Assembly: GCA_030837965.1 (NCBI GenBank)
Contig: JAUTXP010000046.1
Span: forward strand, 38,326 to 102,325
Direction: 5' to 3'
Length of the DNA stretch: 64,000 nucleotides
DNA from: Acidimicrobiaceae bacterium
GTDB lineage: Bacteria; Actinomycetota; Acidimicrobiia; Acidimicrobiales; JAUTXP01
Shown here: one piece after another, positions 7,818 to 52,530 of the stretch
Layout of the letters: the number at the start of each line of letters is the position of its first letter
How positions within the stretch are numbered: position 1 is the stretch's first letter
The notes under the pieces: model-generated
What the model was told of the DNA's origin: nothing
Database searches by the model: none
What the model saw: the letters and a program-made list of their open reading frames with translations, nothing else
Program-made: the position numbers and the translations under genes

Positions 7818-8479
7818 CAACGCCGGCGCTCGAGGCCGTCACCCTCTACCGGTTCTTCCACGCGGGCCACGACGAGGTGCTGGCGTTGCGGGGCGTGTCA
7901 CTCGAAGCGGCACCAGGGGAGGTGGTGGCCGTCGTGGGCCCGTCGGGCTCCGGGAAGTCGACGCTCCTCGCGTGCCTGTCTGGGGTGGATGAACCGGACG
8001 GCGGCCAGGTGCGGGTGGCCGGCCACGTGCTTACCAGGCGAGGCGAGGCGCGACGCGCCCAATTGCGCGCCCGCTACATCGGCGTCCTCTTCCAATCCGA
8101 CAACCTGGTCGGCCACCTCGGCGTCACTGAGAATGTGCGCCTCGCGCAGCGGCTCGCCGGTCGGGACGACGAGGCCAGGCGTGTGGCCCTGCTCGAAAGC
8201 GTCGGCCTGGCCGGGCGCGCCGCCGCGTTGCCGTCCCAGCTCTCGGGCGGTGAGGCGGTCCGGGCCGCCTTGGCCGTCGCCCTGGCCAACGATCCGGCTG
8301 TGGTGGTTGCCGACGAGCCGACCGGAGAGCTCGACTCCTCCACGGAGCAGACCGTCCTCGAGCTGCTCCTCGCCCAGGCGGGCTCCGGCACCGCGGTGGT
8401 CATCGCCACCCACAGCGACGCCGTCGCCTCGATCGCCGACCGGACCGTCCGCCTGGAGGACGGAAAGGTCCGAGCGTGA
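7814..8479 (+). CDS. ABC transporter ATP-binding protein
   Basis: Walker A 'GPSGSGKST', signature 'LSGGE', Walker B 'VVVADEPT'. GTGA overlap at 7814-7817. Confidence 0.85.
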   Translation: MTTPALEAVTLYRFFHAGHDEVLALRGVSLEAAPGEVVAVVGPSGSGKSTLLACLSGVDEPDGGQVRVAGHVLTRRGEARRAQLRARYIGVLFQSDNLVGHLGVTENVRLAQRLAGRDDEARRVALLESVGLAGRAAALPSQLSGGEAVRAALAVALANDPAVVVADEPTGELDSSTEQTVLELLLAQAGSGTAVVIATHSDAVASIADRTVRLEDGKVRA

Positions 8480-42600: not shown

Positions 42601-42786
42601 CTTTACGAGGCATGGGGCAGGCGCACGCGCGCCAGGCTGTCGACCGTCTTGCCATTTGCAACGGCCGCGGTCACCGATCTGTTGGAGCGCAGCCGCACGC
42701 CGCTGCCCCTTGTCGATGGTGCACTCTCGCTCGACCTGCACCCGTTCGAGATCACGACCCTCGTGTTCGAGCTCACGCCGGAGTAG
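39691..42786 (+). CDS. GH38 alpha-mannosidase
   Basis: 'GNAHIDTAWLWPFRET', 'FACSQPQQLAWM' and 'GAMWVEADCNVPSGESLVRQ' motifs. 1031 aa counted from the ATG at 39691. Confidence 0.9.
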   Translation: MEETPAVTRERVRKALWRDVLPAVYGPTAPLAVSAHHVGGEPISVAAAMPASYEPFEVGGEWGAAWDTTWFRLHGRIPDDWRGAEVVVRVGLGYQGMVGFGAEAIVWEDGVPAQGLSPKHSTYRITEKAAGGDVVDVLLEAAANPIADLDARPAPSLRPDYGGAPRFRLDRAELAVCNREVEGLVLDMDVLLDLYDHLPHDEPRASRILRCLVRALNVLDFDNVADTSAAARDVLVEAMSVRAPSSAHRLAAVGNAHIDTAWLWPFRETVRKCARTFSTALRLMDEYPDYRFACSQPQQLAWMKEQYPELFERIKDRVREGRFELVGAMWVEADCNVPSGESLVRQIAHGCRFLEDEFGVTPGEVWLPDVFGYSASLPQIMRRAGITRFLTQKLSWSTVNRVPHHTFWWEGIDGSRVLTHFPPADTYNGDFSMDQLEHNVRSFKDHDVSGRSLYLFGYGDGGGGPTRELLEKAARYRDIEGAPRVEMSSVEEFWEAAQAELLAAGDRAGVWVGELYLEFHRGTYTTSAMSKRENRSLELLLREAELWSAVRPDGLSHYPSAGLDKAWKDVLLLQFHDVLPGTSIAWVYDDSRSMYASARAAADSAISAAVHALLDGVDTSGMESPVAILNSSPARRREVVSVFGEPHLVDVPALGYVVIDGAHAGGADGVVVGDRTLENEHLRVTLADDGTLSSVWDKDAGREVLAAASQPADGARGNLLQLHEDRPPNWDAWDIDASYMDKADDLDAVESITVVEGGGLVGSLRVARAFGRSRLAQDVVLRAGSRRIDFVTEVDWQESHKLLKASFPVDVHARRATYEIQYGHVERPTHRNTSWDWARFEVCAQKWVDLSEPGYGVALLNDGKYGHDVFGNVMRLSLLRASSSPAPDIDRGVHRFTYALFPHVGDLREAGVIEEAYALNLPLRVVPLTGHGGSAGAASARSWAPFAVSAPGVFVEVVKRAERTDAVVVRLYEAWGRRTRARLSTVLPFATAAVTDLLERSRTPLPLVDGALSLDLHPFEITTLVFELTPE

Positions 42787-44405
42787 AGCGAGGTGGGCCT
42801 GCGCCTACCCTGGATCGTCTTGCCCTGGTAGCTCAGATGGATAGAGCACCGGACTTCTAATCCGATGGTCGCAGGTTCGAGTCCTGCCCAGGGCGCTGTC
42901 TGCGCCAGCGCGCGAACCAGCTTCGGCCCTGTGCTGCCGGTCGGGACGCGGAAGGTCGGGACGATGGGCTGGCGGCTGGTGACCTTGATCTCGGCGATCA
43001 GGGCCTGCATGAGGGCCTTGCGCTCCGGCCACCCGCCCTTGGTCAGCGCGGTGCGGACATGGCTCGTGAGGGCCTTCATGGTCTTGGCATCCGGCACCGC
43101 GAAGTCGCCGTCGCCGTCACGTGCCGCTGCGTCCTCCAGGGCTTGCGCGATTGCCGCTCGTCGGGTGCGGAGGTCTGCCGCCCGCTCGCCCAGGTCGCGG
43201 ATGCGCTTGACGAGCGTGTCCTCCTTGAGCCCGCCGCTCTCGAAGGAGTCCATGTAGCGCTCGATGCCGGCTTCCGTCTTGGCCAGCTCCGTGTCGACGG
43301 CGGTCAGCTCCTTGCGCTGCTGGTCCTTGACCTCCTCGGCCCGCTTGCGGATGGCCTCGATGGCCCGCTCGAACAGGTCCGTGCGCTCGTAGGTCCGAAG
43401 GAGGCTGTCGACCACCTGGCGGTCGAGCTCCTCGCTGGGGACGCGGTCGGTGGCGCAGACCTTGGAGCCGTAGCGGACCTTGGTGCCGCAGGTGTAGTAG
43501 CGGTACTGGTAGCCCGCCCGCCCGTTGGCCACGCCGCCCACGAAGTGCGCCCCGCATTTGGCGCACACTACGAGGCCGCTCAGCAGGTAGGGCGACGAGT
43601 TCGCCCCGAGGCGGCGGGAGTTGTAGGCCCGCTCGCTGCGGATGGCCTGGGCCGCGTCGAAGACGTCCTTGGCCACCAGCGACGGGTGCTTGCCCTGGTG
43701 CCACTGGTCCCGCCAGTTCACCTCGCCGACGTAGACCCGGTTGCGGAGGATGCGGATGACGTTGGTGTAGGTCCACAGTCGCCCCGCCGAGTTCCGGTGC
43801 CCGTTGGCGTTGAGCCAGTCGGCCACGCCGTGCCCGCCCAGGCGGCGCTTCACGTAGAGGTCGAAGATGATCGGGATGAGCGCGGCCTGGTCCTCGTTCA
43901 CCACGAGGTTGCCGTCGTCGCCCCGCACGTAGCCGAACGGCGCGGACCCGACCGGCCACTCGCCGCGTGCCGCCTTGCGCTCCAGCCCTGCCACGATGCG
44001 GTCGACGATGGTGGCCCGCTCGAACTCGGCGAACACGCCGAGCATCTGCACCATCATCCGCCCGGCTGGGGTCGTCGTGTCGAACGGCTCCGTCGCTGAG
44101 CGGAAGGCGACGCCGGCCTTGTCGAGCTCTTCGAGCAGGTGCGCCAGGCCCCGGACTGAGCGGGCGAAGCGGTCGACCCGGTAGACGAGCAAGAGGTCGA
44201 AGCGCTTGGCCTTCGCCTCCCCGATGGCCCGCTGGAGGCCCGGGCGGTCGGTGGTTGCGCCGGACTTCTGGTCGGTGAAGCTCTTCACCAGTTCCCAGTC
44301 CGGCTGGCTGTCGATGTAGGACTGGAGGCGGGTGGCCTGGGCCTCCAGCGAGTACGGCTGGTGCGCCTCGTCCGTCGAGGTGCGGGTGTAGGTGGCGACC
44401 CTCAT
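42603..44405 (-). CDS. Large serine recombinase (resolvase domain + recombinase domain + zinc ribbon + coiled coil)
   Basis: 'VATYTRTSTDE' (catalytic Ser region), 'LLVYRVDRFARS' and 'CAKCG...YYTCG'. SD GGAAGGAG precedes the ATG at 44405. The ORF has no stop before the tRNA, so the last 97 codons or so (42603-42895) are antisense read-through of tRNA-Arg and the GH38 3' end. Confidence 0.85.
   Translation of the reverse strand: MRVATYTRTSTDEAHQPYSLEAQATRLQSYIDSQPDWELVKSFTDQKSGATTDRPGLQRAIGEAKAKRFDLLLVYRVDRFARSVRGLAHLLEELDKAGVAFRSATEPFDTTTPAGRMMVQMLGVFAEFERATIVDRIVAGLERKAARGEWPVGSAPFGYVRGDDGNLVVNEDQAALIPIIFDLYVKRRLGGHGVADWLNANGHRNSAGRLWTYTNVIRILRNRVYVGEVNWRDQWHQGKHPSLVAKDVFDAAQAIRSERAYNSRRLGANSSPYLLSGLVVCAKCGAHFVGGVANGRAGYQYRYYTCGTKVRYGSKVCATDRVPSEELDRQVVDSLLRTYERTDLFERAIEAIRKRAEEVKDQQRKELTAVDTELAKTEAGIERYMDSFESGGLKEDTLVKRIRDLGERAADLRTRRAAIAQALEDAAARDGDGDFAVPDAKTMKALTSHVRTALTKGGWPERKALMQALIAEIKVTSRQPIVPTFRVPTGSTGPKLVRALAQTAPWAGLEPATIGLEVRCSIHLSYQGKTIQGRRRPTSLYSGVSSNTRVVISNGCRSSESAPSTRGSGVRLRSNRSVTAAVANGKTVDSLARVRLPHAS
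42822..42895 (+). tRNA. tRNA-Arg (anticodon TCT)
   Basis: Acceptor GCCCTGG/CCAGGGC, anticodon loop CTTCTAA, T-loop TTCGAGT. 74 nt. Confidence 0.9.
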
Positions 44406-44920
44406 AGGTCGGCTTCTCCTTCCTGGCCGGTCACGGCCTGGTCGTGGTTGTCGTCGGTTGCTGCCGGTGTGCTGTCGCCGGCGTCGGAGGCGCTGGCCGG
44501 TGCGAGCAGCACGGCCAGGGCGATGAGCGCGGCGCGCTCGTTCTCGGGGTCGAGCGGGACGAGCAGCGGGTCGAAGATCTGGACCCGCTTTCACGGCCTG
44601 CCCCCGAGGTTCGGGCGGGGCCGGTCGTGCGGTCGGTGGTTGGGCGGGTGTGCTCCCTTTCACCGGCGTCCTCCGGGTCGCGAAGTGGCACCTATAAACG
44701 GGGTCTCGACCCCGCGAATGTCACAAGGTTTTTCGCGCGGTCGGCTTCTCACGCCCTCTAAACCGCGATTTCGAGGCCCAATGTCACGGGATTCCTCGAA
44801 CCTGCTACCGATGATCTGCATGGCGGCGCTCCATGGGGCGGGGACGGGTCCATCCCGTATATGGCGGCGAAATGCCTGAAAAGTCACAACAAGCCCGCGC
44901 GGTGCTCGAAACTCGGGGGC

Positions 44921-45292
44921 TCAGACGTCGCCGATGAGCTCGGTGTCGTTCCCGTCCACCCGCACGCCCCAGCGGACCTCGCCGCCGGGCTCGCACAGCA
45001 GGACGAACGGCCCGGGCAGCCGCACCTCCGGGTTCCCCCGGTCGGCCACGCCAAGCTCAAGTACGACGTTCCCCTCGGCCGCGAACGACAGCAGCGGCCC
45101 AATGTCCGTGAGCACCAGGCTCACCCGCTCGTGCCCGCCCTCGTCCAGCAGGGCGACGCCGGGGAAGTACCCCTCGGCGTTGCCCTTCAGGTCGCCCATC
45201 ACGACGCGCACCCGCCCAAGCGGGTCTACGACCGCGAACGGTCTCGCCACAACGAGGTCGGCCACATCTTCAAGTTCCGTAAAGTTCTCCAC
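44921..45292 (-). CDS. Hypothetical protein (123 aa)
   Basis: GTG at 45292 has GGAGGA 6 nt upstream. The ORF is coherent and co-oriented downstream of the deaminase. Confidence 0.5.
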   Translation of the reverse strand: MENFTELEDVADLVVARPFAVVDPLGRVRVVMGDLKGNAEGYFPGVALLDEGGHERVSLVLTDIGPLLSFAAEGNVVLELGVADRGNPEVRLPGPFVLLCEPGGEVRWGVRVDGNDTELIGDV

Positions 45293-45444
45293 GTCGGTTC
45301 CTCCAGTTACGAATCGGCCAGGCCGGGGGGTGTTGCTGCACCGCCCCGGCCACTGTCGGTTGTCAACCGGCCACACGACCGGCCCGACGTGGATAGGTCA
45401 CCTCCGCCGCGAACTTCAACAACCAGCGCCGCGTGACCGTCTAG

Positions 45445-45765: not shown

Positions 45766-47529
45766 TCATGTGGCGGGCTGCCCTTCTCCGCTCGCACGAA
45801 GAGCGTCTCCGCCCGCGTCGGCACTGGCGCCTGCGTCTAGCACTGGAGGCGGGCCTGTCTCGGTGGCGGGGGCACTGCCAACGGCGTCTTCTGGTTCGGC
45901 CCGCGCCGCGATTGGAACGTAGACCGGTTCGATTGCTCCCGACGCAAGACCGTTGAGGACCTGTGAGATCGACGTGACTACCGTCGACTCACGCTCTCGA
46001 ACGCCATTCTCATTCCAGCCAGCCGTCTGCGGCCATGCCTTCATCCGGTCCCACTCGATGATCTGATCGCCAACCCTACGTTCGCCCGCACGAAACGCGG
46101 TCGCATACAGCCGAGGCGCGATGCCGAAGAATTGATGAAAAGGCACGCGTCTACCACTCAATCCAGAGGTCCCGTACAACTCGGGCTCGGTGTCAATGAG
46201 ATCTCGGTACAGGCGGCTCACGAGACTTTTTGGATAGGGCTCGACGTAGTGAACCTCGGTGATCCCGGCGCCAATGATCATCTTGGCGCATTCGTGGCAC
46301 GGGAAGGTCGTCGTATACATCATTGCATCGGTGGTAGCGATGCCAGCCCGAGCAGCATTGACGATCGCCGATTGCTCTGCATGGAGACACCTGGTGAACT
46401 CGATGAGCGCCGACGCCCTAGCGCCTTCGAGGACTGACTCTCCCTCATCAGACGACTCGGTCGCCCTTGCCAGGAGTTGCGGGCCGGTCAGCGAGCGGAG
46501 CTCATCTACGAGCCATCCGCGCCTGGCAAGCCGCTCAAGCATCTCCTGGATCACCCGTTTCGTGTAAACCGGATTTGGATCCGAGCCCACCTGGAAGTCC
46601 CGGTAGTCCGGAACATCGCCACTCCAGTACTGGCCACCGCCAGGCTTCGGAACCTCGTTAGTCCCTACGATCATCGGTGTTCCGATACGCGGGACGATTG
46701 TTGCCCCCACTTGACGGCCAGCCGCTGCCGATCGCAGGCTTGCGTCGAATGCAAGGCGCATCGCTTCTTCAGCTGGCCGGGGCGTGGCAAAGGGAGCGCC
46801 GAACACGGCGTCGATAAAACGATCTACTTCGTGCGCGACGATCAACCCCCTGCCGCTGGGCAAATAGACATCCGCCATCGAGTACACGGCGCGGACGTTC
46901 TGGCCAAAGTCTTGCTCTTCCGAGTCGGATTCATCGCGGGCAATGAGGTTCTCCGCCTCCGAGCGAGGGTTCTCAAAGAGCGAGAGATGGTCCGCCAAGG
47001 CTTGCCGGCGTTCTTCGATGCTGCTCGCAACTGCAACCAACAGAAACGCGTCGCCGTAGACATGCCGCAGAAGGTGTACTTCCGATGGGTTCTTGAGGCT
47101 GCGAAGAACAAAGGCAGATTCCTTGGGTTTCGGTCCGCGCCGCTTGACGATTGCGGTCACAGCCAAGGCTGCGAGGGCTGCGGCGTTGCCTACGGCACCC
47201 CGGAGCTCATCGCCTGCGTTCATCCGTAGGCGGTAGTACTCACGCTCGCCGCGTTTCGGCAGCGTCCCCCACGGCGCAAAGGGAGTCGTATCCAGTAGGT
47301 CCGACAGCCTGACGGACTCGTACCCGTAGCCGAACCGGCGCAGCGAGTCGCGCAGTGCCGTCTCCACGTCGTCGAGCGGAGTCCCGACAGGTGCTACCAG
47401 AGCAAGGATCAGGGGGTGGCGTTCCGGGTCGCGCCTGATGACCTTGCCAAGGGACTCGCGCGCGCGAGTCGCGACGGTCGTTGGGTCGGCCTGTGACTTC
47501 GTCCCCTTCTTGCCCGGTTTTGTCGGCAT
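45766..47529 (-). CDS. Anti-phage dCTP deaminase-type protein (AvcD/DCD-like): N-terminal kinase/NTPase-like domain + C-terminal CMP/dCMP-type zinc deaminase
   Basis: Deaminase zinc motifs 'CLHAEQSAI' (HAE) and 'FPCHECAKMI' (PCxxC). An N-terminal region of about 250 aa carries a degenerate P-loop ('LVAPVGTPLD'). Confidence 0.75.
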   Translation of the reverse strand: MPTKPGKKGTKSQADPTTVATRARESLGKVIRRDPERHPLILALVAPVGTPLDDVETALRDSLRRFGYGYESVRLSDLLDTTPFAPWGTLPKRGEREYYRLRMNAGDELRGAVGNAAALAALAVTAIVKRRGPKPKESAFVLRSLKNPSEVHLLRHVYGDAFLLVAVASSIEERRQALADHLSLFENPRSEAENLIARDESDSEEQDFGQNVRAVYSMADVYLPSGRGLIVAHEVDRFIDAVFGAPFATPRPAEEAMRLAFDASLRSAAAGRQVGATIVPRIGTPMIVGTNEVPKPGGGQYWSGDVPDYRDFQVGSDPNPVYTKRVIQEMLERLARRGWLVDELRSLTGPQLLARATESSDEGESVLEGARASALIEFTRCLHAEQSAIVNAARAGIATTDAMMYTTTFPCHECAKMIIGAGITEVHYVEPYPKSLVSRLYRDLIDTEPELYGTSGLSGRRVPFHQFFGIAPRLYATAFRAGERRVGDQIIEWDRMKAWPQTAGWNENGVRERESTVVTSISQVLNGLASGAIEPVYVPIAARAEPEDAVGSAPATETGPPPVLDAGASADAGGDALRASGEGQPAT

Positions 47530-47597: not shown

Positions 47598-47636
47598 TCC
47601 CGCCATGGGCATCCCGCGTCCCGCCATGGGCATCCC
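47598..47636. promoter_or_regulatory. Two perfect 18-bp direct repeats (TCCCGCCATGGGCATCCC), 21-bp period
   Basis: Copies at 47598-47615 and 47619-47636, in the divergent region between the deaminase and the TGT-like gene. Confidence 0.5.
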
Positions 47637-47670
47637 CGCAAATGCGGCAGCCGACGGAGAAAATGATGGG

Positions 47671-48741
47671 ATGGCATCAGTCTCTACTCGAACGCCCGAG
47701 GCCAAAGCACGTGTTCGCCGGGCGCAGTTGCTCGTCTACGCGGGCCGCAATGAGGTTGCAGCGAGGCAGGACGTACATTTGAGGCGCGGCATCATCTTTC
47801 ACGGTCGGCTCGGCGCGGTCGAGGCCGCAGGCTTGAGGAGCCGCGGGTTCACTGGGGCGCTTGCGGTGGACCCCGAGCGCTATACCAAACTCAACGAGCA
47901 GCCGCCGCGCTTGATCAGCGATGCCGATCTCTGCGCCACCGAGCAGGCGACGCTTGGGGTTTCCGCATACTTTGCGCCTTCATTCGCCACTCAACGAACC
48001 CAAGCGTCATTGCTCTCTGTGCTCGAAGATGGTGCCTCCTTTCTCTCCGCCGTGGAACGAACGGGAGCTTCGGCGCCTGCTTACGTATCCGTTGTTGTCA
48101 CTCCGTTCTGGCTCTCGGAGGGCCTCGACGTCTTAGAGACGGCCGTTCGAGATTTCGCACGACCTATCGCCTTCGTGTTCGCAGCACCATTCGATCCCCT
48201 GGGATCTCAAGCTGCCGTCGAAGGCGCACTTCGGTTGATCCAGGCCTCGGCCGGGGCCTTCATCCTTCGGTGTGACCTCTCGGCGATCGGGCTCGTGGCC
48301 GGTGGAGCGATGGGCGGTTCGGTGGGTGCATCCGCTACCACAAGACACCTCGGCATGCCGCTTCGGAATGCTCGGCGTGACAGATCGAGCAGGGACAACT
48401 CGTTGCACGTCTTTGTTCCTCGCCTCCTGAGCTGGCCTCGCGGGTCGACGCTGGAGCACCTCGCTGACGATCTCGACGTCTTTGTGTGTCGATGCGGCGT
48501 TTGCCAGGGAGATTCGCTGCTTCGGTTCCGTGAGGCTTCGCGGGCCGTCGAGGCAGAGCGTCACGCTGTGGCAGCTTGGGCCGCGATCGCTGACGCAGTG
48601 CTTGGTGACAATGACCCGATCGCTCGGTGGCGAAGCGTTCTCGAGAGTGCCGACAACGCTTACGGCGAGCTCGAGGCTGACGGCGTAGCCCTCGGTCGGC
48701 CTGGATTCATTCGCGCGTGGCTTTCAGTGCTCCCTGCGTGA
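47671..48741 (+). CDS. tRNA-guanine-transglycosylase (TGT)/DpdA-like protein, tentative
   Basis: 'CRCGVCQG...(16 aa)...RH' fits the TGT CxCxxC...H zinc motif, and 'VAGGAMGGSVGAS' resembles the TGT GGLAVGE strand. The start may instead be 47605. Confidence 0.4.
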   Translation: MASVSTRTPEAKARVRRAQLLVYAGRNEVAARQDVHLRRGIIFHGRLGAVEAAGLRSRGFTGALAVDPERYTKLNEQPPRLISDADLCATEQATLGVSAYFAPSFATQRTQASLLSVLEDGASFLSAVERTGASAPAYVSVVVTPFWLSEGLDVLETAVRDFARPIAFVFAAPFDPLGSQAAVEGALRLIQASAGAFILRCDLSAIGLVAGGAMGGSVGASATTRHLGMPLRNARRDRSSRDNSLHVFVPRLLSWPRGSTLEHLADDLDVFVCRCGVCQGDSLLRFREASRAVEAERHAVAAWAAIADAVLGDNDPIARWRSVLESADNAYGELEADGVALGRPGFIRAWLSVLPA

Positions 48742-49324
48742 CCATCGCGTTCCAGACCCGTTCCTGAACAAGCCACCTCCTCGGACCCGGCCGCACGTGT
48801 TCCCGTGTTGATGGCGAGAGCGTTGCACCGTCTCGCACAAGGCCAACTCCGACCCGTTCGGCTCTGGCGCTCCACGATGGCGCCCGGTTAACCACGAGAC
48901 CGCGTTCGGCGTCTGCAGCCAGTACGGAGATCGCCTCGAGGTCTCGCTCGCCTCGCGTTGCGCACCGGAGGACGCCGGTTAACTCGACGACTGGCCTGAA
49001 TATCCGGGTGACCGCGTCCTGGCTCCAGCTCAATGCCCATCGGGGCACTGACTCGAGAACTGCACGGTGGGCGAGTTCGAGAGATCGGAGCGGAACGGCG
49101 ATCTCCTCGGGCAGGGAGCCAAACGCCCGGAGTATGTCGCGGTCGAGAAGTGCGCCTGCTCCTGAGCGCCGGCCAGCCTCCGCCGCGTCCACTAGGCCGA
49201 TGGCCCACACGTTCACGTTGGCGAGTTGGATTTCAACGAGAGGCCTTCCCGCCCAGCCGAAGGCCTCAGCGAGCGAGGTGGCGTCGGCCCGTGTCAACCC
49301 GGTCTCGCTTGTGGCTGTCCTCAT
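48707..49324 (-). CDS. Hypothetical protein (205 aa)
   Basis: A coherent ORF whose 3' end overlaps the TGT-like gene by 35 nt (convergent). No motif recognised. Confidence 0.5.
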   Translation of the reverse strand: MRTATSETGLTRADATSLAEAFGWAGRPLVEIQLANVNVWAIGLVDAAEAGRRSGAGALLDRDILRAFGSLPEEIAVPLRSLELAHRAVLESVPRWALSWSQDAVTRIFRPVVELTGVLRCATRGERDLEAISVLAADAERGLVVNRAPSWSARAERVGVGLVRDGATLSPSTREHVRPGPRRWLVQERVWNAMVTQGALKATRE

Positions 49325-49326
49325 AC

Positions 49327-49344
49327 AGTGAAAAGCTTTTCACT
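49327..49344. promoter_or_regulatory. Perfect 18-bp palindrome AGTGAAAAGCTTTTCACT
   Basis: Read directly in an AT-rich 50-bp divergent intergenic region, with an extra half-site TTCAC at 49352-49356. Confidence 0.6.
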
Positions 49345-49374
49345 AATTAACTTCACAAGCGTGGATGGGGTTGG

Positions 49375-49638
49375 ATGACGGCAGACGGCCGAGTCTCGAA
49401 GGCCCTCTTTGGTAACGCCAACCTGCTCTCGGTCGCGGAAGCGGCGGCAGGGTTCGCTGGCGCCTTCACCGGTCGCGCGCTTGCTGCAGGCGCCGACCTT
49501 CCGGACCCGGTTGTTACCCCCATCGTTAGGCGTCTGAGCGAAGGCCGCGTCATCGTGCTGAAGCGCGAAGTCGGTCGCAGCCGCGAGTACGAGGTGGTGG
49601 ACGGTCCGTTCTGGGATCTGATTCGCTCCCTCGCCTAG
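49375..49638 (+). CDS. Small winged-helix DNA-binding protein (87 aa), tentative
   Basis: Its size, the 'IVRRLSEGRVIVLKREVGRSREYEV' wing-like segment, and its divergent position next to the palindrome. Confidence 0.5.
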   Translation: MTADGRVSKALFGNANLLSVAEAAAGFAGAFTGRALAAGADLPDPVVTPIVRRLSEGRVIVLKREVGRSREYEVVDGPFWDLIRSLA

Positions 49639-49650
49639 GGACAGGTGGGG

Positions 49651-50760
49651 CTACGAACCGCCCTCACCGGCGGGCAGGCGGTTGTACAGCCAACCTCGGC
49701 CTTGTTCTCGCCACGGACAATCGTTTTCGCCTGGAGTCAGTAGCCCTCCGGGATCGACGGTCGGCCCGAGCACTCGATATCGGTTGTGGAGCGTCTTGCC
49801 GTCCTTCTCCACCAGGCCGTCGCGGTCGGCGCGGCGCTGGGTGATGCTCACCTGGTCGGCTCGTTGCCACGACGTGCAAACGAGGATCACGTGGGCGTGA
49901 TCACCTCGCTCCTCCTCGAAGCGGTCGTAGCGGTAGAGCTCATCGAGCAGCTTCTCGACTGAGCCGCCGGGGTCGGGGACGAGAAAGAACTGCTCGACCC
50001 GGCTCTCCTCCTGCCACTCGCCGAACCAGGCCTCCCGGATGATCCCCTGAGTCCACTTCTCGACTTCCTCGGGCCGCATCCAGTCCAGCAGCTTGCAGCG
50101 TGGGTTGACCCGCTGGGTCGCCACGAGGCGGGCGTAGAACGCGCTAACGGCCACGCTGCGGGCCAGGACGGCCCGACGGGCCAAGGCGATGCCGAACGCG
50201 CCCCGGTAGCGGCGGACGGCCTGGTCGACGTTGGCACCAGTCCACGCCGCGACCACCGCCGCTCCTTCACGCCCGAGCACGTAGTGGTACGGCTCCGAGC
50301 CGCCGCCCTCCCGGTAGGGGCGGAAGCGGTCGAGGACGCCCATCTCGTAGAGCTGCTTCAACCGGACGAGCCCGCGGCCGCGGGTGTCGAAGAACATCTC
50401 GCAGATGTGGTTGGCCGTCAGCACGTTCAGCCTCCACACGGCGCGCACGATCTCCAGGTCTCGGTCGGTGAGGCGGGGGAGCAGTCGATAGCGGTAGTCG
50501 CCTGAGTGTGGGCGGGGACGGGACTGAGGGGACGCTGGTCCCCTCAGGAGTCGGGTTTCCGACTTCGCGCCCGTGACCCGCCGACGACCAGCGCCTTTGC
50601 GGCTGTCCTCCGCGAAGTCGAGCGCGGATGCGGTCACCACCGACTCCGCGAGCGACTTCGCGCCCGATGTTGCGCCCGACTCTGCGGGCCACAGCGGGGC
50701 CGTCACTTGCCCGGCTCCGACTCGACGCGGGGCTTGCGCGAGTACGGCCGACTCAGGCAC
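49651..50760 (-). CDS. Replication-relaxation family protein
   Basis: 'LTDRDLEIVRAVWRLNVLTANHICEMFF' and 'RLKQLYEMGVLDRFRP', typical of actinobacterial plasmid/AICE replication-relaxation proteins. Confidence 0.65.
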   Translation of the reverse strand: MPESAVLAQAPRRVGAGQVTAPLWPAESGATSGAKSLAESVVTASALDFAEDSRKGAGRRRVTGAKSETRLLRGPASPQSRPRPHSGDYRYRLLPRLTDRDLEIVRAVWRLNVLTANHICEMFFDTRGRGLVRLKQLYEMGVLDRFRPYREGGGSEPYHYVLGREGAAVVAAWTGANVDQAVRRYRGAFGIALARRAVLARSVAVSAFYARLVATQRVNPRCKLLDWMRPEEVEKWTQGIIREAWFGEWQEESRVEQFFLVPDPGGSVEKLLDELYRYDRFEEERGDHAHVILVCTSWQRADQVSITQRRADRDGLVEKDGKTLHNRYRVLGPTVDPGGLLTPGENDCPWREQGRGWLYNRLPAGEGGS

Positions 50761-50818
50761 AGAGGCTCGGCCTCGATGAGCGGCGGGGGGTTTCCGCCAT
50801 CAGTTAGGTGCAAGTGCC
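50759..50818. repeat. Copy A of a 60-nt repeat (extended similarity from 50737)
   Basis: 58 of 60 nt are identical to 51570-51629. It contains GGCGG-N7-CCGCC. Confidence 0.85.
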
Positions 50819-50912
50819 AAGCATGAAATACATCGAGACTTCTCAGAACTCAGAGAAGAATGCATACGTGAAGACCACGGCCGCCGACCGCGCATCGCGA
50901 TATCGTGATGTC

Positions 50913-51122
50913 ATGACGAAGCAGACGACCGTGCGACTCCCGGACGAGCTGGCCGACGAGGCCGAGGCGGTCGCGCGCGTCAAGGGCACGAGCGTCAACG
51001 CGCTCATCGTGGAGTCGCTTGCCGCCGAGATCCAGCGCGTCCGGGCCGACAAGGACTTCACCAAGCGGGCCCGCAAGCTCTTGGAGCGGGACAAGGAGCT
51101 GCTCGACCGCCTCGCCCGTTGA
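50913..51122 (+). CDS. Ribbon-helix-helix antitoxin
   Basis: 'TTVRLPDELADEAEAVARVKGTSVNALIVESL' RHH pattern. Its stop overlaps the Doc start. Confidence 0.7.
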   Translation: MTKQTTVRLPDELADEAEAVARVKGTSVNALIVESLAAEIQRVRADKDFTKRARKLLERDKELLDRLAR

Positions 51123-51517
51123 CGCGCTACATCACCCTCGCCGAGTACGTCTGGCTCGCGGAGCAGGTGACTGACGTGGAGACCGCGGTGCTTGCTAAGG
51201 CGTCCCGGCTCGACCTGGCCGACTCGGCCCTCCACGCGCCGCAGGCCGGCTTCGGCGACGACGACTTCTACCCGGACGCGATCGACAAGGCTGCGGTGCT
51301 CACGTGTCGGCTTTCGTGGAACCACTCCCTGCCCGACGGCAACAAGCGGGCGGCCTGGGCCGCCCTGGTCGTGTTCCTCGACCTCAACGACTGGGTCTGG
51401 GAGCCGGACCCGCCGGACGTCGACGAGGCCGAGGCCGCCATACAGGCGGTCGCCGCGGGCGAGGTCGATGAGGCATGGCTCGCGGACTGGCTCCGTGCCC
51501 GCGTCCGGCGGGCTTGA
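51119..51517 (+). CDS. Doc (death-on-curing, Fic-fold) toxin
   Basis: 'NHSLPDGNKRAAWAA' is a Fic/Doc-type motif (compare H.F.DGNKR). The TTG start overlaps the upstream stop. Confidence 0.75.
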   Translation: MTRYITLAEYVWLAEQVTDVETAVLAKASRLDLADSALHAPQAGFGDDDFYPDAIDKAAVLTCRLSWNHSLPDGNKRAAWAALVVFLDLNDWVWEPDPPDVDEAEAAIQAVAAGEVDEAWLADWLRARVRRA

Positions 51518-51569
51518 CGCGCTCACTTCTCGACCCCCGAACGTCGTCGCGAGTAGGGCCTCGACAGAT

Positions 51570-51629
51570 ACAGAGGTTCGGCCTCGATCAGCGGCGGGGG
51601 GTTTCCGCCATCAGTTAGGTGCAAGTGCC
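51570..51629. repeat. Copy B of the 60-nt repeat (extended similarity from 51547)
   Basis: 58 of 60 nt are identical to 50759-50818. It lies 41 bp upstream of the Phd-like antitoxin start. Confidence 0.85.
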
Positions 51630-51670: not shown

Positions 51671-51859
51671 GTGAAAGAGATCTCCGCCACCGAGGCAGCT
51701 CGCGGATTCTCCGACATCCTCGACGCAGTCGAGCATCGACGACAGTCGTTCGTCGTCGTCCGGGGCGGGCACGCCGTGGCCAGACTGGAGCCGGTCGCCG
51801 CTGTTGACGGCAAGGCTCTCAAGACGCTGCTCGCCAAGCACAAGCCCGACAGGGCATGA
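51671..51859 (+). CDS. Phd/YefM-type antitoxin
   Basis: 'ISATEAARGFSDILDAVEHRRQSFVVVRGGHAVARLEP'. ATGA overlap with the PIN gene. Confidence 0.7.
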   Translation: MKEISATEAARGFSDILDAVEHRRQSFVVVRGGHAVARLEPVAAVDGKALKTLLAKHKPDRA

Positions 51860-52308
51860 CTCAAGGAACTGACCGAGATGCGCGAGGCGCTGCCCGTCGA
51901 GGAGCGGTCCTGGCCAGCCTGATCCTCGACGCGTCGGTTCTTGTCGATGCAGAGCGGCAGGGCACGAAGCTTGCGCAGATCGTCGCTGACGACGACGACG
52001 TGGCGATCGCCGCTATCACGGTCGCCGAGCTTCTCGTCGGGGTCGAGCTTGCTAACGGGAAGCGCCGTGTCGCAAGGCAGAAGCTTGTCGACGCCATCAT
52101 CGACACGCTGCCGATCGAGGACTACGACCTCAACGTCGCCCGGCGGCACGGCGAGTTACTCGCGCACGCCCGACTCGCCGGGCAACCCCGCGGCGCGCAC
52201 GAACTCGTCATCGCCGCCACAGCGGTTGCTCGCCGCCGGATTGTTGTGACCGCCGATGCCCGAGGCTTCGACGGTCTGCCCGGCGTGACCTACCGTGCCA
52301 TCCGCTGA
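51856..52308 (+). CDS. VapC-type PIN-domain toxin
   Basis: 'LILDASVLV', 'ITVAEL' and 'VVTADARGF' supply the PIN acidic residues. Confidence 0.75.
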   Translation: MTQGTDRDARGAARRGAVLASLILDASVLVDAERQGTKLAQIVADDDDVAIAAITVAELLVGVELANGKRRVARQKLVDAIIDTLPIEDYDLNVARRHGELLAHARLAGQPRGAHELVIAATAVARRRIVVTADARGFDGLPGVTYRAIR

Positions 52309-52363: not shown

Positions 52364-52530
52364 CGCTGTCCGCATCACCGCGCGGAACCAACTTCGGGCC
52401 TGTGCTGCCAGTCGGGCCGCGGAAGGTCGGGACGATCTGCTGGCTCGACTCGCCCTTCACTTCGCGGATCAGGCCTTGCGTGGGCCTCACCCGTGACGGG
52501 CTGCGGGCCTTTGTGATGGTGCGGTCGCGG
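52364..52530 (-). pseudogene. 3' remnant of a second, diverged large serine recombinase
   Basis: 'TQGLIREVKGESSQQIVPTFRGPTGSTGPKLV' aligns with the intact 'MQALIAEIKVTSRQPIVPTFRVPTGSTGPKLV'. 46 of 50 nt are identical between 52387-52436 and 42916-42965. Confidence 0.7.

Follow-up and report, generated by a model that had tools for sequence, protein, structure and literature searches.

A TGT-fold protein and its convergent partner: a candidate anti-phage defence cassette carried by an integrative element of an Acidimicrobiaceae bacterium

The tRNA-guanine transglycosylases (TGTs) use Asp280 as the nucleophile and Asp102 and Asp156 for reading the base (Z. mobilis numbering), while their zinc subdomain helps hold the nucleic acid. 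To our knowledge, enzymes with this fold are known in immunity in three settings only, namely the Dpd systems, the type IV cyclic-oligonucleotide-based anti-phage signalling systems (CBASS) and the predicted BRC systems, all of which are tied to 7-deazaguanine chemistry. The first of these settings is represented by DpdA, which belongs to the Dpd 7-deazaguanine DNA modification and restriction system (PMC10164549; PDB 7ui4). The Cap10 protein of type IV CBASS has a TGT fold in which the zinc site is absent while the catalytic Asp is kept, and it acts via a tight protein partner and not on tRNA (bioRxiv 10.1101/2025.04.06.647259). Finally, the BRC systems feature a TGT homologue that is predicted to act without DpdB or DpdC, in loci built around HerA/FtsK, PglZ, a STAND NTPase, DUF4007 and GNAT (PMC12839542). 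Here we describe a TGT-fold protein of 356 residues that is encoded in a three-gene module at positions 47671-49638 of a 64,000-nucleotide (nt) stretch of high-G+C DNA (henceforth, the window; contig JAUTXP010000046.1 of assembly GCA_030837965.1) from a metagenome-assembled genome (MAG) of an Acidimicrobiaceae bacterium.

Our central finding is that this protein, as judged by its predicted structural model, has the fold of the TGT superfamily with a conserved zinc site, and that its gene belongs to a cassette with a convergent partner gene and a small helix-turn-helix (HTH) regulator. The module had been singled out by an original prediction, made from the letters of the DNA and their open reading frames (ORFs), as a possible nucleic-acid-modification or defence module. 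Its components are laid out as follows.

47671..48741, forward strand: TGT-fold protein of 356 residues, with a predicted (beta/alpha)8 barrel and then a C-terminal zinc subdomain
48707..49324, reverse strand: partner of 205 residues, fold unassigned, convergent with the TGT-fold gene with a 35-nt overlap
48707..48741: 35 nt shared by the convergent genes at their 3' ends, from the ORF coordinates
49327..49344: 18-nt perfect palindrome AGTGAAAAGCTTTTCACT, candidate operator, from a motif scan of the window
49375..49638, forward strand: putative winged-helix regulator of 87 residues, divergent from the partner gene and found at the same position in loci L018 and L020
47598..47636: two perfect copies of TCCCGCCATGGGCATCCC, candidate regulatory site (2 matches against 0.01 expected)

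The ORF of the TGT-fold protein (47605-48741) would yield 378 residues if read from its first ATG and 356 if translation begins at the ATG of position 47671. The latter start is supported both by the NCBI annotation, in which the identical protein (100% identity) is entered as 'MAG: hypothetical protein QOK43_2199', and by the homologues, which also start at this position. The original description of the arrangement agrees with what we see: the ORF coordinates give the same 35-nt overlap of the convergent genes, and the perfect palindrome reported between the divergent 205-residue and 87-residue genes is unique in the window, where 0 copies are expected by chance. This palindrome lies inside a 50-nt AT-rich spacer between the two genes, with a third TTCAC half-site near it at 49352-49356. 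The two copies of TCCCGCCATGGGCATCCC (47598-47615 and 47619-47636, with a start-to-start distance of 21 nt) are placed in the 141-nt spacer that separates the TGT-fold gene from a dCTP deaminase gene and are probably a site to which a regulator binds. Scanning the cassette for tandem repeats, promoters and terminators added nothing to these elements.

The 356-residue protein has no match in Pfam at E<=1, none in NCBIfam, PADLOC or PHROGs and none in the PDB by phmmer; likewise, none of 67 family members matches a Pfam model at E<=0.1. By sequence it therefore stands outside PF01702, the sequence-level TGT family. Its relationship emerges from the predicted structure. While an alignment of two sequences gave an unusable AlphaFold2 model with a predicted local distance difference test score (pLDDT) of 42, an alignment of 67 sequences, whose members are 22-40% identical to the window protein, gave one with a pLDDT of 91.7 and a predicted template-modelling score of 0.90. 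In this model, eight beta strands are interspersed with helices, and the C-terminal region beyond them is helical. Foldseek recovered nine matches from the PDB at E<=0.001, of which eight are bacterial TGTs or mammalian QTRT1; these eight extend over 360-395 columns (E 3e-5 to 1e-3, probability 1.0, template-modelling (TM) score 0.46-0.55) at a sequence identity of 9-14%. The remaining match, like the generic TIM barrels ranked below it, covers only about 230-270 columns. Hence, the fold comparison that had been suggested as a check on the original prediction bears it out, with TGT and QTRT1 as the sole full-length matches in the PDB. The same model found nothing significant in BFVD, a library of viral structures.

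The original prediction had drawn attention to a 'CRCGVC' motif followed 20 residues later by a His as a zinc site of the TGT type. In the 356-residue protein these are C273-C275-C278 and H298, the latter exactly 20 residues after C278. Searching the PDB with a hidden Markov model (HMM) of the family picked out about 40 chains of TGT (E 0.3-0.6), in each case through the CxCxxC...H(N) element, with 'dCdCsvCeG...eaHn' of the family aligned to 'ECHCAVCQ...EHN' of TGT. Similarly, hhalign against a six-sequence TGT alignment placed residues 247-322 on residues 277-359 of E. coli Tgt (E 0.0027, as against 0.14 for a reversed-sequence control); comparison of the family profile with the lone E. coli Tgt sequence was uninformative. 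The ligands are strongly conserved in the 67-sequence alignment (C273 in 67/67, C275 in 54/67, C278 in 64/67 and H298 in 67/67), and the C.C..C...H pattern as a whole is present in 115 of the 132 family members that are full-length. Because it is conserved across the family, the motif is not there by chance; with the zinc site both in register with that of TGT in the two kinds of alignment and conserved, the objection that a chance motif might occur in a protein lacking the fold therefore fails. The modelled protein combines the two marks of the superfamily, the barrel with its zinc subdomain and the CxCxxC...H pattern.

Beyond the zinc ligands C273 and H298, the residues invariant across the 67 sequences are D67, R200, D202, G219, R225 and W350, with H226, C278, Q92 and D175 nearly so. 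In the model, the conserved polar residues are situated after strands 3, 7 and 8, with D175 following strand 6 and Q92 in the helix preceding strand 4. A greedy hhalign alignment that is co-linear with TGT over the full length allows a low-confidence assignment of counterparts, its probability outside the zinc region being 11%. It pairs D67 with the Asp102-type residue ('DPxxY' vs 'TDSGGFQ'), AIGLVAGGA (205-213) with 'AVGGLAVGE' and 'RH-LGMPLRNAR' with 'FD-CVMPTRNAR'; the counterpart of H226 is thereby D280 of Z. mobilis, the catalytic Asp, and that of the conserved P230 (H226+4) is the Pro of 'PTR', likewise four residues after the Asp, while the position of Asp156 has no Asp. In segment 87-128 the score of this alignment does not exceed that of the reversed control. 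A strand 'GGAMGGSVGAS', which had been likened to the 'GGLAVGE' of TGT, is indeed present at 211-221; the likeness itself is only rough, and the low-confidence alignment puts AIGLVAGGA in that place instead.

If these pairings are followed, the nucleophilic Asp may have given way to a conserved Arg-His pair (R225-H226), a substitution to which we attach low confidence, and the 356-residue protein is probably not a canonical transglycosylase. Base exchange, which had been put forward as a possible activity, is doubtful because the residue that appears to align with the nucleophilic Asp is a His. Should the Arg-His replacement be right, the canonical exchange of 7-deazaguanines through a covalent Asp would be unlikely.

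An exhaustive profile search recovered 492 representatives of the family at the level of 50% clustering with E<=1e-3, and 327 with E<=1e-10. Word-indexed searches retrieved only 2-11 proteins; one homologue with 40% identity keeps C273, C275, C278 and H298. No homologue of the 356-residue protein was found in plasmid and phage collections or in viral contigs. The composition of the family is rich in Gly, Ala, Arg and Pro throughout, as is the case in high-G+C organisms. Gauged from this composition and from three named genomes (Acidimicrobiaceae, Mycolicibacterium and Amycolatopsis), the family appears to be characteristic of high-GC bacteria, among them Mycolicibacterium and the Acidimicrobiia. 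Domain fusions were considered for its longer members and rejected, the extensions being either low-complexity or frameshifted.

To place the gene in its genomic setting, we compared 21 distinct loci obtained from exact-protein look-ups and from scans of sequence collections. In 20 of these, including those of distant family members, the TGT-like gene meets a convergent partner ORF at its 3' end, with an overlap of 11-80 nt in most loci and a gap of 20 nt in L023 and L033. The partners were called at 192-211 residues where complete and delimited at up to about 250 residues elsewhere. They are homologous to the 205-residue protein of the window: identities in the close clade are 35-44%, links across clades are provided by BLAST chains and by an hhalign match between the two main groups (E 2.4e-4), and the partner of a distant member is recovered by an HMM match (E 4e-14). 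The partner evolves fast, with only G26, R53 and E188 invariant in its family; that of the window has a single Lys, which is C-terminal. The 205-residue protein has no match in Pfam, the PDB, PADLOC or PHROGs, and its motifs lend no support to the candidates that we considered for it, namely a PD-(D/E)xK, HNH or GIY-YIG nuclease or a RES/ART toxin.

A small HTH gene is present on the 5' side of the partner in every locus examined there. The 87-residue gene of the window has homologues (41% identity, E 3e-10) that occupy the equivalent place in L018 and L020. Its earlier designation as a winged HTH stands as far as the gene and its position are concerned; the label itself derives only from weak, sub-threshold matches of these homologues to MarR_2 and HTH_24 (E 0.03-0.09), and the 87-residue protein has no match of its own in Pfam, NCBIfam, PADLOC, PHROGs or, by phmmer, the PDB. 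Other loci present different HTH genes at this end of the cassette. For instance, in L012, L014, L015 and the P0090 locus the partner gene begins within an XRE-type or XRE-like gene, and in L016 an XRE gene lies just upstream of it; L033 has a winged-helix-like gene of 99 residues, and the Mycolicibacterium group a protein of ~180 residues that combines an HTH_17-like domain with a coiled coil. At the opposite end, a subset of the loci has a gene coding for a fused XRE-HTH and M78-peptidase protein. In L002, L006, L007, L023 and L033 it extends into the beginning of the TGT-like gene, in L022 it stops 8 nt short of that gene, and in L005 it is reduced to a C-terminal remnant of 61 residues ('...PHDPKAVQR', 7819-8004). 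The view that the 356-residue protein, the 205-residue protein and the small regulator form one module is upheld by this survey of homologous neighbourhoods, which had been proposed at the outset and which found conserved neighbours, not scattered genes. Separately, the closest among the soil-metagenome relatives have small genes just upstream of the cassette (L010 1981-2735; L018 3319-3822), among which those of L010 include a weak match to a DUF6036-type nucleotidyltransferase; these genes may constitute a further toxin-antitoxin-like pair.

About 10 loci have flanks adequate for assessing association with defence islands. In them the cassette is recurrently adjacent to known defence systems in unrelated genomes. 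These include Gabija (GajA E 2.6e-181; GajB E 2.9e-115), Wadjet (JetA and JetC), a Lamassu-type LmuB, PD-Lambda-1, Tmn and a HerA-type ATPase; further neighbours are a type ISP restriction enzyme and HEPN_AbiU2. In L005 the cassette is the cargo of a Tn7-like transposon (L005 1-4223) that encodes a TnsA-like protein, TniB, TniQ and a 729-residue HTH protein, and in the window its neighbours are the dCTP deaminase and two toxin-antitoxin pairs. A very divergent TGT relative with a partner and a regulator is thus encoded next to anti-phage systems, which makes the cassette a promising candidate for a defence module of an undescribed kind. Neither core protein matches a system catalogued in PADLOC 2023, and a full-text search of the literature found no description of the cassette; together with the lack of an entry in Pfam, NCBIfam or PHROGs, this agrees with the earlier assertion that the module is undescribed. 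The accompanying assertion that genes for preQ0 synthesis and the other dpd genes are missing can be affirmed for the island of the window and 16 related loci, in which we found no dpdB, dpdC, dpdD-K or preQ0 synthesis genes.

The island in question is ~9.5 kb in length and adjoins a tRNA-Arg(TCT) gene at 42822-42896. It is flanked by a 60-nt direct repeat of 90% identity (42914-42973 and 52385-52444), and its G+C content is 0.63-0.64, compared with about 0.70 in the remaining window. Apart from the module and a Replic_Relax gene recognised by Pfam, it presents the following features.

42603-44663, reverse strand: large serine recombinase with Pfam Resolvase, Recombinase and Zn_ribbon_recom domains
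44921-45376, reverse strand: ORF of 151 residues between the recombinase and deaminase genes, with a third-codon-position G+C of 0.86, a good coding signal
45766-47529, reverse strand: anti-phage dCTP deaminase of 587 residues (PADLOC dCTPase, E 4.5e-127, 423 bits)
50808-51517: toxin-antitoxin pair, ribbon-helix-helix (RHH)/Doc, from a reading of motifs
51671-52308: toxin-antitoxin pair, Phd/VapC, from a reading of motifs

From the gene content of the island, the initial assignment of the module to a mobile element with defence cargo is therefore correct: the tRNA-Arg gene, the serine recombinase, the 60-nt repeat, the Replic_Relax gene and the drop in G+C all point the same way. The neighbouring gene had likewise been rightly named as a dCTP deaminase, as the PADLOC match attests. 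Against the NCBIfam antiphage_deaminase model it scores 359.8 bits (E 1.9e-107); because this is just below the 400-bit equivalog cut-off, we take it to be a divergent member of the actinobacterial type. The 151-residue ORF has no Pfam or PHROG match, and a scan with Rfam returned the tRNA only. The 9.5-kb element is thus a dense carrier of defence and addiction cargo.

Some further observations concern the boundaries and the regulation of this element. The frame of the recombinase remains open, without a stop, through the antisense strand of the tRNA-Arg gene, and both copies of the 60-nt repeat, one of which is just downstream of that gene, encode '..IVPTFRxPTGSTGPKLV' on the minus strand. 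The repeats could be the attL and attR sites of the ~9.5-kb element, or a relic of an earlier recombinase gene at the site. In addition, an 82-nt direct repeat of 89% identity is found 5' of each toxin-antitoxin pair (50737-50818 and 51548-51629); going by this repeat, the otherwise unrelated RHH/Doc and Phd/VapC pairs seem to share one promoter/operator region.

We favour, tentatively and at somewhat short of an even chance, the reading that the module is a self-contained conflict cassette, most likely devoted to anti-phage defence, in which a TGT-fold effector is coupled to a controlling partner and travels as cargo of the integrative element. The TGT-fold protein would be the catalytic effector and, on this reading, the dangerous protein of the pair. 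It keeps the barrel, the zinc subdomain and a ring of conserved polar residues (D67, D175, R200, D202, R225 and H226), and it would act on tRNA or DNA, with a base or a nucleotide as its substrate. With a remodelled centre composed of Asp67, Asp202, Arg200 and Arg225-His226, in which Arg-His takes the place of the Asp nucleophile, it might remove bases by hydrolysis, or act on nucleotides in some other way, as opposed to exchanging 7-deazaguanine. The partner lacks a recognisable catalytic signature and evolves fast, and for this reason we propose it as the cognate controller, which could be either an inhibitor or immunity protein or a sensor of the trigger. The HTH regulators, joined in some loci by the XRE-M78 protease, would gate expression, and convergent transcription might add mutual antisense interference. 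A more specific form of this proposal is that the Arg-His version of the TGT scaffold is a new immune effector whose zinc subdomain still binds a tRNA or DNA, which removes or chemically alters a base or nucleotide, such as the wobble base of a tRNA, and which is restrained by the partner until infection; we regard this as rather unlikely, and it would amount to a defence mechanism without a described counterpart.

Several points weigh against the favoured reading. The defence role is suggested by genomic association, and the role ascribed to the partner is a guess. The partner is preceded by an overlapping XRE gene in several loci, as is usual for toxins and restriction genes, and the convergent arrangement is unusual for toxin/immunity pairs. 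On the structural side, the TM-scores to TGT are moderate (0.50-0.55) and the identity is 9-14%, and the mapping of residues beyond the zinc region is statistically weak, as seen in the 11% probability and in the control-level score of segment 87-128. Finally, in L017 (Amycolatopsis sp. NPDC051903, 5821-6969) a paralogous family member with 26% identity has no partner and sits between genes for a phospholipase-C-type phosphoesterase and an alpha/beta hydrolase. This solo gene may stand for a branch that has taken on a different role, or be the remnant of a cassette in decay.

The position of the XRE genes brings to mind restriction-modification (R-M) systems with a C protein, in some of which, e.g. 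Esp1396I, a C-R operon is convergent to the M gene. By analogy, the TGT-fold enzyme would mark the host DNA in the manner of M, through the exchange or alteration of a base, the partner would restrict, and the HTH protein would be a C protein delaying the partner. The gene order, the XRE genes overlapping or just upstream of the partner's start and the palindromic candidate operator at the 5' end of the window's partner are all in keeping with such a scheme, and DNA-modifying homologues of TGT do exist in DpdA (PMC10164549) and BRC (PMC12839542). Nevertheless, the partner, with its three invariant residues, single Lys and lack of Pfam and PDB matches, has no nuclease signature. The annotated loci have neither preQ0 genes nor a helper of the DpdB/DpdC type, and the nucleophilic Asp, and possibly the equivalent of Asp156, appear, with low confidence, to be missing. 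Moreover, the DpdA structure 7ui4, which was present in the PDB searched, is absent both from the profile matches at E<=10 and from the best 50 Foldseek matches. On balance, an R-M-like function seems unlikely to us.

Equally unlikely, in our estimate, is a toxin-antitoxin or addiction module whose function would be to stabilise mobile elements, one protein being the toxin and the other its neutraliser, with no direct anti-phage role. It would fit the carriage by an integrative element in the window and by a Tn7-like transposon in L005, as well as the other toxin-antitoxin pairs nearby, and XRE-M78 and XRE genes are typically found as the antitoxin or regulator of such pairs; the partner of the cassette also evolves fast. 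However, the core genes are convergent and not co-transcribed as in type II systems, and the immediate neighbours of the cassette are mostly dedicated defence systems. The distinction from defence is also largely semantic, since many such modules act by abortive infection.

We consider it improbable that the 356-residue protein belongs to small-molecule metabolism, as a TIM-barrel enzyme whose likeness to TGT is superficial and whose gene is found in variable parts of the genome by coincidence, or that it is a non-catalytic scaffold. Such a role could account for the failure of every sequence model to recognise it, for the putative nucleophile not being conserved and for L017, where the gene stands without the partner among hydrolase and transporter genes. 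However, the zinc subdomain is in register with that of TGT and the full-length structural matches are to TGTs only; the tight association with the partner, the HTH regulators and defence systems is likewise at odds with metabolism, and the invariant polar residues count against a dead scaffold.

The last alternative, that the TGT-fold gene and the adjacent dCTP deaminase act as one system, as the original prediction had entertained in pairing them, draws on their divergent orientation and on the shared 141-nt spacer with its two 18-nt repeats, but we reject it as highly improbable: the deaminase gene by itself makes up a complete system that is already known, no related locus with annotated flanks has a deaminase next to the cassette, and it is because no other locus has one that we regard it as a chance neighbour on the island and not a partner.

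How, then, does the cassette that we favour as a defence module compare with the described systems? Like Tgt and QTRT1 (PF01702), its sole full-length structural matches, the 356-residue protein has the barrel and the CxCxxC...H(N) zinc subdomain, and D67 after strand 3 sits, by the low-confidence mapping, where TGT has the base-contacting Asp102. It differs from them in the apparent Arg-His at the Asp280 position and in the lack of conservation of Asp156, both of low confidence, as well as in having no Pfam match. The contexts differ too: the E. coli tgt gene is a neighbour of queA and yajC, whereas the gene of the 356-residue protein belongs to a mobile defence-island cassette. With DpdA it has in common that it is a member of the TGT superfamily in a defence context, apart from tRNA housekeeping. 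Nonetheless, the Dpd system comprises more than ten genes, while the cassette comprises two or three, with no dpd or preQ0 genes in the annotated loci, and nothing links the 356-residue protein specifically to the DpdA branch in which the original prediction had been inclined to see it.

None of the HerA/FtsK, PglZ, STAND NTPase, DUF4007 and GNAT components of BRC is a conserved part of the cassette, and no CD-NTase, Cap9 (QueC-like) or effector gene of type IV CBASS is found near it in any locus. With C-protein R-M systems it shares the small HTH gene at a gene start, the convergent second gene and the palindromic (here candidate) operator, though its two proteins include no methyltransferase and no recognisable nuclease. 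Relative to Cap10, the 356-residue family shows the reverse pattern, the zinc site being kept and the catalytic Asp apparently lost (again with low confidence). At the same time, Cap10 is an earlier example of a TGT scaffold that is directed at a protein in anti-phage defence.

We see a real, if modest, chance that the chemistry of the 356-residue protein is categorically new. We rate the protein itself as a new family of the TGT superfamily in defence, and the cassette as a new architecture. Were the cassette to be a true defence system, it would be a compact two-gene one in high-GC bacteria, where defence repertoires are poorly charted, and would provide a natural experiment on the re-tooling of a base-exchange scaffold. 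Set beside Dpd, type IV CBASS and BRC, the family would represent a fourth branch, invisible at the sequence level and with about 490 representatives, that is distinguished from the other three by a different partner, an absence of deazaguanine genes and an apparently remodelled centre.

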